This document shows positions 45,948-48,889 of a stretch of DNA of 64,000 nucleotides, piece after piece. A model generated the notes under the pieces. The model did not search any database. It had not been told where the DNA came from and saw only the letters and a program-made list of their open reading frames with translations. The translations under genes were made by a program, and so were the position numbers. Origin of the DNA: Eledone cirrhosa (Eukaryota). Positions within the stretch are counted from its first letter, which is position 1. Each line of letters begins with the position of its first letter. The stretch lies in the NCBI GenBank assembly GCA_964016885.1, contig OZ024766.1, forward strand, positions 8,928,001 to 8,992,000, written 5' to 3'.

Positions 45948-48889
45948 TTATTCCTTTTTTTTAAATGTTATTTCCAGGGTCACATTTGAGAAACAGGACT
46001 CTATTTGGGGTTTCAAGACTATGAAATAATTGTAGGGTTTTGGTTTTATGATAGAAACCCGCTGGTCAGTTCCAGGTTTGTTTGACCTCCATTTCGTGAG
46101 ATGTTCCTTACAGTTGACCCTCTTGTAACAAACATAAAGATCCACACCACCTTCCCCAGAGTATGTCACGACATCCACTTTCTTCCACAGAGTCTTCTTT
46201 ATATGAAGTTTAAAGACAATCTCCTCACCCTCAACTGATTTCAGTTTCTCCACAGTCGAGTTTTTGTGGATGCCGCGTATATATGTAGAGATATCGCAAG
46301 TATTAATGCCGACCTTCTCGAAAGAATGCTTCACGGGTTTCGTGTTATAGCCAAGGTCGTAAGCGGCTTTTATTACACCACAAGCGCCCTCAACAAAATT
46401 GGTCGTCGGATGCCAATAAAAGCGATTGGCGTGGACGGCAGTATGGAAAATTTTCCTCACATTCCAGCCCTCACTGTTGGACAAAAGACAGAAAAAACGG
46501 TTAAAAACCCCGCTACTGTAATGGACATTAAGGTCACTGTGGTATTTACTGGCGTGAATGATCGAATGCCCATCAGCAGATTGGTTACAAAGCTTGCGCA
46601 ATGGTGTGGGAGAAATGTCCTCACCGATTTTCCAGTCCTTTTCGTAAAATTCAAAGTTTTCGACTGCCTCCCCGGCTAGGTCACTGAAAGCTTCGTTGAT
46701 CGCCCCCATCTCAGCTTTGTACAACAACCCAGAGTTCTCATCCGTGAAACAATGTGAGATTTCGTGAGCAACAATATCTAAGCTGACAAACGACATATAT
46801 TTGTTATTGCCGTCACCAAACACAAATTTGTCCCCGATATAAAAAGCATTCGCTATATTACGACCGTAATGTATGTGAAAGACCAATGGTAACTCTTTCT
46901 TCGGAGATACATTACCCCATTCTATATACATCCTATAGGCAACTCCTCCATAAAACAGTGCATCGTTTATCGGTGAATAAGAGTTGTTGATTTCATCGCG
47001 TGAGCCATTTTTGCAGTTCGCATGATAAGTTTTCTGTTTGTCAATGGGTAAATATCTTTGACCTTTTACATTAATCACCTTGACAATGTCATTTAAAAAG
47101 TAGCAATCTTCACCACTTTTTTCCACATTTAAATATGGCCTGTCCACTCCGTATATATGTTTCCCTATCAGGGCATTTCCTCCGCTTCCTTCAATTTTGT
47201 CCATCTCGTTCTTGTTTTCGTTAAGTTTCGTTTCGTTCTTGTCTTGTTTATCATCTACCTCATTAAGTTTCGTTTCGTTCTTGTCTTGTTTATCATCTAC
47301 CTCATTAAGTTTCGTTTCGTTCTTGTCTTGTTTATCATCTACCTCGTTAAGTTTTGTTTCGTTCTTGTCTTGTTTATCATCTACCTCGTTAAGTTTCGTT
47401 TCGTTCTTGTCTTGTTTATCATCTACCTCGTTAAGTTTCGTTTCGTTCTTGTCTTGTTTATCATCTACCTCATTAAGTTTCGTTTCGTTCTTGTCTTGTT
47501 TATCATCTACCTCATTAAGTTTCGTTTCGTTCTTGTCTTGTTTATCATCTACCTCGTTAAGTTTCGTTTCGTTCTTGTCTTGTTTATCATCTACCTCGTT
47601 AAGTTTTGTTTCAACTACATCTAGGTTATTATCTACCACATTACGTTTCATTTCATCCACATCTAGGTTATTATCTAGCACATTCAATTTCACTTTGTAC
47701 ATGTCTGAGTCTACGTTATTTTGTAGTGCCTTCAGTTTCATTTCATATGCATCTAAGTTATTATCTACCTCGTTACGTTTCATTTTGTCCATGTCTTCGT
47801 TATTACCTAGCTCGTTACGTTTCATTTCGTCCACATCTACGTTATTACCTAGCTCGTTACGTTTCATTTTGTCCATGTCTTCATTATTACCTAGCTCGTT
47901 ACGTTTCATTTCGTCCACGTCTTCGTTATTACCTAGCTCGTTACGTTTCATTTTGTCCATGTCTTCGTTATTACCTACCTCGTTACGTTGCATTTTGTCC
48001 ACGTCTTCGTTATTACCTAGCTCATTACGTTTCATTTCGTCCACGTCTTCGTTATTACCTAGCTCGTTACGTTTCATTTCGTCCACGTCTTCGTTATTAC
48101 CTAGCTCATTACGTTTCATTTTGTCCGCGTCTTCGTTATTACCTAGCTTGTTACGTTTCATTTCGTCCACGTCTTCGTTATTACCTAGCTCGTTACGTTT
48201 TATTTCGTCCACGTCTAGGTTATTTTCTAGCGCATTCCGTTTCATTCTGCGCAACCTTCGGTCAGTTCCTAACTTATTCAATTTTATTTTGTAAGCGTCC
48301 CGGTTAGTTTCTAGAGCGTCCCATTTCTCGAGAAGTTCTCCAGTCATAGCATCGATCATCATACAGAACCGATAACTTTCCTCATCAGCCACAGCGAAAT
48401 ATCTCACTCGATATACCAAGAACCCTTTATGGCCCTTCACGTAGATCTCCAGCAGGGGTTTCTCACTCTCTATATGGACCCCTTCTGTCGTGAAATTACC
48501 GTACATCACCGCTAACTTCACAGCTTCGTCTTCAGTGACGTTTGGTTTCGTAGATTCGATGTCTTTGTCAAGATTCTGGACAAGTTTCCCGGTCACTTGA
48601 CCAGTATAGAGGTCAGTCACTGCATCAGTCTCGACAGTGAGGGTAGCATCAAACACTGGCAACCCTCTATAAGTCTCCATGTACTTTTTGATGTCGGTTC
48701 CTTGGACGCTCTGAGCAGAATCGGTCAATTTTACGTCCTCGTGTTCCTTCATGCCAAACAGGTCCCTTGTGGTGATTAAACGATGTGGTTCCCGCTTCAT
48801 CTTCTCACTCAGGGATTCCATGTTGGACAAGAACACGTCCCTAGCCTGTCGCCATTTCACCGACAACACCACATCGCTCTCCAGCAACG
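45948..48889 (-). CDS. M4-family (vibriolysin/pseudolysin/thermolysin-like) secreted zinc metalloprotease, exon 2: FTP, PepSY, 14-aa repeat insert, M4 catalytic domain, PPC-like C-terminal domain
   Basis: HEISH zinc motif (46766-46752), GAINEAFSD third ligand, NAFY, FGDG, VHYSSGVFN, SPINDA, mature-start-like GSGGN. Propeptide motifs YRGLPVF and IDAMTGELLEKWD. PPC-like SGEGGVDLYV...FSNVTL. Polypyrimidine tract and acceptor TCTAG at 48894-48890; stop TAA at 45950-45948. Confidence 0.93.
47200..48260 (-). repeat. Coding 42-bp (14-aa) tandem repeat inside the M4 gene
   Basis: About 15 units of the MKRNELGNNEDVDE type followed by 9 units of ETKLNEVDDKQDKN, all in frame. Confidence 0.95.

Follow-up and report, generated by a model that had tools for sequence, protein, structure and literature searches.

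The window, the whole 64,000-nucleotide stretch of Eledone cirrhosa DNA analysed here, carries on its minus strand a predicted two-exon gene for a signal-bearing M4 protease precursor of the pseudolysin/vibriolysin type. All features of the gene given below are on this strand. Exon 1 (58079..58124, 46 coding nt) provides the ATG and the hydrophobic part of a predicted signal peptide, a stretch similar to the N-terminus of O. bimaculoides P0005; its donor is GTGAGT, starting at 58078. The intron (48890..58078, about 9.2 kb) consists mostly of minisatellites and has a pyrimidine tract and a TAG acceptor. Exon 2 (45948..48889) holds the remainder of the precursor up to the stop codon and sits inside a 1023-codon open frame. 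Read together, the two exons give 995 codons free of stops. Judging from the N-terminal hydrophobic stretch of exon 1, the precursor would be secreted.

The propeptide (48321..48860) has an FTP motif and a PepSY-like end, closing at a conserved Trp. Its Pfam FTP score was 20.6 bits, just below the cut-off of 21; it is 61-75% identical to octopod propeptides and aligns to Pseudomonas pro-elastase by way of P0007, which matches that protein at E 3e-84. The M4 catalytic domain (46293..47189) was recognized by Pfam Peptidase_M4 (E 2.6e-19; 70.6 bits, cut-off 22.4) and M4_C (E 7.5e-29; 101.2 bits, cut-off 24.4). The zinc ligands are intact, with HEISH at 46766-46752 and the third ligand, Glu 46694, in the motif NEAFSD (E-x-x-S-D); both motifs correspond to invariant columns of the homologue alignments. 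The domain also has a His at 46523, and in the alignment all conserved cysteines are retained in the predicted protein. The C-terminal domain (45951..46292) has the pre-peptidase C-terminal (PPC) region as its aligned counterpart in bacterial homologues; no Pfam match of its own was found for it. A signal, an FTP/PepSY propeptide, a HEXXH catalytic domain and a PPC-like tail are shared with the pseudolysin/vibriolysin branch of M4 (LasB, VemA, MCP-02). The domain layout agrees with that described for Vibrio VemA (PMC9785129).

A search with the catalytic part as query left 556 of 3200 candidates, headed by seven octopod proteins with 53-57% identity, six named Octopus or Argonauta and one that clusters with O. 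bimaculoides; they were followed by bivalve-like and bacterial M4s at 33-47%. Over the alignment, identity to the octopod members was 57-61%. The family occurs in octopods, bivalves and abalone, and its molluscan members are already annotated in databases: the octopod 'elastase' and molluscan 'neutral protease-like' proteins (NCBI names; Octopus, Argonauta, Ylistrum, Ostrea, Pinctada, Haliotis) belong to the same family and clade. A literature search, to which most subscription journals were out of reach, found no paper on animal or octopod M4 proteases. This bacterial-type family is mollusc-wide (P0002-P0008, P0124-P0134, P0221, P0239, P0306), with at least two octopod subfamilies. Octopod members resemble one another more closely in the propeptide (61-93% identity) than in the catalytic domain (56-85%). 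One further M4 protein, P0051, labelled Idotea baltica and 'UNVERIFIED_CONTAM', looks bacterial and is probably contamination.

No second M4 gene was found by tblastn within the 64-kb window. Bacterial contamination as the source of the gene itself was ruled out by the intron, by C2H2 zinc-finger and LINE neighbours and by the octopod best matches. The zinc-finger open frame (1-951, + strand), with about 11 tandem fingers, runs off the window start, and a broken LINE (36413-38644, - strand) has endonuclease and reverse transcriptase pieces across three frames. A MITE-like foldback element of about 870 bp (59443-60309), with 138-nt arms (97%) and inner 61-nt arms, lies 1.3 kb upstream of exon 1, and a near-perfect 57-nt palindrome (98%) at 62951-63068 has TA runs on both sides. 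The window is rich in minisatellites, with 166 rows in the tandem-repeat list. A 60/72-bp family forms several arrays (28287-34895, 39325-40394, 49128-54415, 58461-58815) and includes a higher-order repeat, 204 bp long and present in 32 copies (98%); its frames are stop-free for up to 2335 codons, without any evidence here of being genes. An 82-bp array at 2494-10840 has about 103 copies at 95% identity.

The repeat array at the propeptide/mature junction

Between the propeptide and the catalytic domain lies an array of 26 units of 42 bp (one of 48 bp) and a partial unit. The units end in KR (12 of 26), KL (13 of 26) or QR (1 of 26). Unit 1 (48279..48320) is the original junction 14-mer, in which the site homologous to bacterial self-cleavage, Thr|Asn, is at 48306/48305. 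Unit 2 (48237..48278), the most diverged copy, ends in RRLRRMKR, a predicted furin site. Block A (units 3-13, 47775..48236) consists of acidic 14-mers, ten of them ending in KR and one in QR; units 4-13 differ from one another by 0-5 nt. Units 14-17 (47601..47774) are older and diverged, include the one of 16 codons and contain the last KR (47648-47643). Block B (units 18-26, 47223..47600) consists of nine 14-mers of identical sequence that have no KR and each of which carries an N-E-T glycosylation sequon. The last partial unit (47190..47222) leads into the catalytic domain. Block B adjoins the catalytic domain directly and could form a heavily N-glycosylated acidic stalk.

The motif RRLRRMKR and the 12 KR pairs named in the original prediction were both confirmed. 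The former is at 48260-48237 on the minus strand, where R-L-R-R and R-M-K-R both match R-X-K/R-R; the latter extend from 48242 to 47643, one of them within the furin motif. The motif is also at the propeptide/mature junction as predicted; it starts 15 residues C-terminal to the position aligned with the His|Ala self-cleavage site of Pseudomonas pro-elastase. The cassette that had been placed at 47610..48260 is real; these limits hold half of the array only, since the KR-free nine-unit block continues to 47223. A coiled-coil expansion, one of the alternatives that had been raised for the repeat, was ruled out: hydrophobic residues at positions 3, 9 and 12 of 14 (spacing 6-3-5), with Gly-Asn-Asn between them, do not fit. 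The insert is not an intron either, as it is an open frame and contig 26 of run X4 continues without a break out of the catalytic part and into the last unit of the repeat.

The array was compared with contigs from four runs, X1-X3 (about 1.4 Gb of short-read contigs from one sample) and X4 (88 Mb from a second sample). Contigs of X1-X3 match both array ends with 0 differences (48171-48419 and 45899-47247) and cover inner pieces too, and contigs of X1-X4 cross the last partial unit with 0 differences. Units 14-17 are mostly without contig coverage; 47544-47761 is uncovered in all four runs and no contig spans the array, the copy number of which rests on the assembly. The gap in coverage was given no weight in either direction. 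Contig 30 of X4 matches 48749-48890 without difference and then stops, with 290 letters left over, unlike the X1-X3 contigs, which run through 48890 into the intron. A stop one base past the acceptor fits a splice to exon 1, as both end in G. X4 also has a 1349-nt contig identical to the catalytic part and contigs over the KR block. X4 appears to behave like RNA, which would mean that the gene is expressed. No X4 contig links the propeptide to the insert; the sole crossing contig there is that of a paralogue, described below.

We consider it very unlikely that the gene is a decaying duplicate, or its array inflated by the assembly, with no useful enzyme made. The uncovered interval and the lack of a spanning contig could be explained in this way, and so could the terminal branch of this gene, the longest among octopod proteins in the tree described below (0.37 versus 0.03-0.28). 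Against this stand the stop-free frame of 995 codons with its intact splice signals, the retained zinc ligands and conserved cysteines, the exact match of both array ends to raw-data contigs, and the two X4 contigs that end at the predicted acceptor and are identical to the catalytic part, respectively.

Origin and distribution of the repeat unit

In the alignment, unit 1, DALETNRDAYKIKL, falls on the octopod junction NTLETAREKYQMKG, in which the residues aligned to unit 1 are N-T-L-E-T-A-R-E-K-Y-Q-M-K-G. From the conserved Trp to a GGN motif there are 383 residues here versus 19 in octopods. The excess of 364 residues is exactly 26 x 14, which together with the alignment of unit 1 indicates that the repeat is the pro/mature junction itself. 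The repeated unit includes the position aligning with His|Ala of Pseudomonas pro-elastase, where mature PDB chains begin. By alignment and length, the cassette is thus the 14-codon pro/mature junction amplified in tandem, and the amplification is restricted to this lineage.

The ancestral unit ends in Lys-Gly. In the genetic code, one base change leads from Gly to Arg and one more from Arg to Leu. Identical codons, AAA CGT, encode 11 of the 12 KR pairs within the 42-bp tandem repeat; the 12 KR are therefore not 12 independent events and are best read as one event that was then copied. A single GGN-to-CGN substitution in the ancestral Lys-Gly would have created KR one time, and copying would then have multiplied it.

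The original prediction had asked whether KR is conserved in orthologue and paralogue inserts, and had named absence of the insert from orthologues as a result that would refute it. This was the result obtained: the insert is absent from all nine octopod homologues with a readable junction (P0002-P0008, P0122 and P0277; P0123 ends before the junction and was left out of the count) and from a paralogue in X4. When shorter homologues were searched for with residues 1-250 of the query, there were two matches among 908 candidates, neither with the repeat. The paralogue was found in contig 27 of X4, which has 13 differences from the window over 48304-48659 and 8 over 47089-47170, and skips 1133 nt. 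In their place are 41 other letters, corresponding to 14 codons and restoring the ancestral length. These 41 foreign letters and 21 differences rule out the joint as a splice form of the present gene; the contig stems from a close paralogue, or from a very divergent allele, that lacks the insert. The paralogue (contig 27 and X1-X3 pro-region contigs) is nearly identical over 270 nt of the propeptide and 10-15% diverged at the junction, and most of its catalytic part was not matched at 90%, a pattern that hints at 5' gene conversion. At silent sites there, divergence between the paralogues is smaller than divergence among the older repeat units.

Junction length was surveyed in 267 proteins. 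Both anchors were present in 261, and three with empty junctions were dropped, leaving 258. The junction was 15-17 residues long in 215 of these 258 homologues, and the next longest after this gene was 129 residues. An animal gene with an intron, a 383-residue junction, a furin motif and an Asn at P1' of the self-cleavage site set this protein apart from the pseudolysin/vibriolysin branch. The octopod members have neither the insert nor a furin motif at the junction, and in two abalone members the inserts are unrelated to this one. Besides the junction of 108 residues in abalone P0239, a different repeat without a basic motif, other long junctions were those of P0171 and P0202 (129 and 119 residues), where an apparent PPC-type domain is inserted between the propeptide and the catalytic domain.

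A FastTree tree of the 258 catalytic domains (304 columns) gave a 28-member clade that holds all named molluscs (support 0.885) and a 14-member clade (0.892). The node joining the two was unsupported (0.379). Members of the 14-member clade often occur as several paralogues on one large contig, which suggests that this clade is eukaryotic.

Peptides flanked by KR

Cutting at every KR would, in silico, give nine 12-mers, one 26-mer and one 42-mer, all net acidic and all starting with Asn. The nine 12-mers are four copies of NELGNNEDVDEM, two of NELGNNEDMDKM and three single variants. A predicted signal peptide, a furin site first and then regular dibasic sites give the precursor the look of a prohormone. 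It might be bifunctional: besides the protease, about ten acidic peptides would be released by convertases, to act as signals, to bind metal or calcium, or to form part of a secretion. KR is retained in 10 of the 11 block A units, and the RNA-like run X4 has contigs over the KR block, both of which count in favour of such a precursor.

We nevertheless regard a bifunctional precursor as unlikely, since the insert is missing from all homologues and the paralogue, so that no peptide is conserved between species or paralogues, and since purifying selection on the repeated peptide was not detected in units 4-13 or in the older units, small as these numbers are. Units 4-13 have 3 silent and 7 replacement variants (neutral silent share 22-26%, P 0.38-0.50). 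The eight older units differ from the majority at 20, 25 and 26 places in codon positions 1, 2 and 3, and the absence of stop codons in the repeat had P 0.23 under neutrality. In block B the variants are all silent (2 silent, 0 replacement; P 0.045-0.065), which hints weakly at constraint, although the numbers are too small for a conclusion. All of these tests are made less reliable by tandem homogenisation, and none of them favours a conserved peptide. The K and R codons in block A are without silent variation, as copying predicts.

No Gly precedes a basic residue anywhere in the insert, so the statement that the peptides lack a C-terminal Gly holds. Neither an amidation Gly nor a pyroglutamate end was found in the insert (no G-K/R; the pieces begin with Asn and have no N-terminal Gln); such ends are common, though not universal, among neuropeptides. 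The composition of the 12-mers resembles that of the acidic spacers of prohormones, which also counts against the bifunctional precursor. An Atlas search with the repeat had a best score of 0.78, inside the range of shuffled sequences, and the insert had no Pfam match. Neutral-like repeats, the missing amidation Gly, a last KR about 150 residues away from the catalytic domain, absence in homologues and copied KR sites together make a peptide-hormone cassette unlikely. The proposal of some ten functional peptides, in an array that copies the junction and in which 13 of 26 units end in KL and one in QR, was thus not borne out.

Multi-copy neuropeptide precursors (FMRFamide type) and sunflower PawS1/SFTI-1 are examples of peptides within secreted precursors, repeated between dibasic sites or buried. 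The present array shares with multi-copy neuropeptide precursors the repeated similar peptides between dibasic sites. It differs from them in having no cross-species conservation, purifying selection or amidation, and its units are copies of the enzyme's own junction. A neuropeptide-precursor look can thus arise from one base change and tandem copying, and the array may serve both as a model for the origin of such precursors and as a warning for motif-based neuropeptide annotation. It is improbable, in our view, that we see a multi-peptide precursor being born inside a bacterial-type protease, with a duplicated self-cleavage site, one Gly-to-Arg change and amplification giving a convertase-cut cassette of bioactive acidic peptides next to an active protease, and with animals having handed M4 activation to convertases several times independently.

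The predicted furin-type site and its possible role in activation of the enzyme

Unit 2 contains five arginines, and its distance to each of the other 42-bp units is 16-23 of 42 nt. When random substitution to the distance of unit 2 was simulated, five or more Arg appeared with P about 0.002, and R-X-K/R-R at the unit end with P 0.002-0.02 (four starting units, 20,000 trials each); these simulations are post hoc and assume an ancestor of unit 2. The R-X-K/R-R after the prodomain, the predicted furin site at 48260-48237, was found in none of the nine octopod homologues.

The self-cleavage site has changed as well. In M4 enzymes P1' is a small hydrophobic residue next to the catalytic domain, whereas here it is Asn and about 370 residues away. 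With P1' placed by counting six residues from the conserved Trp, it was Ala, Val or Thr in eight of eight octopod-clade proteins, and among 205 short-junction proteins outside the two clades it was Ala in 124 and Asn in two. Most octopods have Thr|Ala at the site where unit 1 has Thr|Asn. The differences from paralogue contigs, at the listed positions only, were 7 silent and 2 replacement in the upstream propeptide and 2 silent and 8 replacement around the junction. At several of the latter the paralogue has the octopod state. These junction differences fit remodelling of the self-processing region.

The whole insert, including the furin motif, might be a tolerated coding minisatellite without a role, with self-activation of the enzyme at the original site or inside the loop and degradation of the repeat. 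The many minisatellites of the window, the neutral-like variation of the repeat with its non-significant lack of stops, and the long inserts that the junction loop takes elsewhere (P0171, P0202 and abalone P0239) agree with this reading. We hold it to be doubtful, though a serious possibility, because the arginine gain of unit 2 is improbable under neutrality, an Asn at P1' is rare and replacement differences from the paralogue prevail near the junction but not further upstream.

The explanation that we favour, with modest confidence, is that the junction 14-mer was tandemly copied and that one copy became a polybasic site where furin-type host enzymes likely remove the propeptide in place of self-cleavage, the KR-flanked 12-mers being probably an inert spacer. 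The precursor would enter the secretory pathway, a furin-type enzyme would cut after RRLRRMKR and separate the propeptide, and self-cleavage at the original site would decay. The KR sites of block A may also be cut, releasing acidic spacer pieces. The usual mature N-terminus is out of reach for convertases acting alone, as about 150 residues separate the last KR from the catalytic domain. An enzyme cut by them only would carry about 150 acidic residues and nine N-glycan sequons at its N-terminus; it might retain this extension as a stalk or trim it itself before Leu, Val or Met. The suggestion that activation was rewired to host convertases fares better than that of functional peptides and has indirect support in the arginine gain of unit 2, the loss of the usual P1' and the recurrence of basic junctions in other M4s.

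Furin-activated ADAMs, MT-MMPs and BMP1 have R-X-K/R-R between an inhibitory prodomain and the catalytic domain, and their furin site abuts the mature N-terminus. They belong to a different family and fold class, and in the present protein the site is about 350 residues upstream of the mature N-terminus. Activation, if it occurs in this way at all, would by analogy work like that of furin-activated ADAM or MT-MMP precursors.

A basic motif at the junction (R-X-X-R, KR or RR) was present in 2 of the 28 mollusc-clade proteins, 9 of the 14 in the other clade and 2 of the 216 others, which include named bacteria. The strict R-X-K/R-R was found in two proteins of the 28-member clade, two of the 14-member clade and none of the other 216. 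As the members of the 14-member clade are kin and not independent, and as longer junctions contain more motifs by chance, a Fisher value for motif enrichment overstates the case. The two mollusc-clade proteins with a basic motif are this gene and abalone P0221, in which R-H-R-R is followed by a Thr/Pro-rich linker. The other 26 of 28 have none, so convertase activation is not a rule of the family. Basic junction sites recur separately in P0221, P0166, P0210 and P0299. If the furin reading is true, the animal secretory pathway would have taken control of a self-activating bacterial-type protease, apparently on more than one occasion and at one evolutionary hotspot.

P0307 has an unrelated 101-residue repeat with five dibasic sites at the same place, and an Atlas search with this protein gave bacterial M4 clusters only. 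P0307, P0166, P0208, P0210, P0299 and their kin are the M4 proteins of the 14-member clade, the junctions of which are lengthened and often polybasic.
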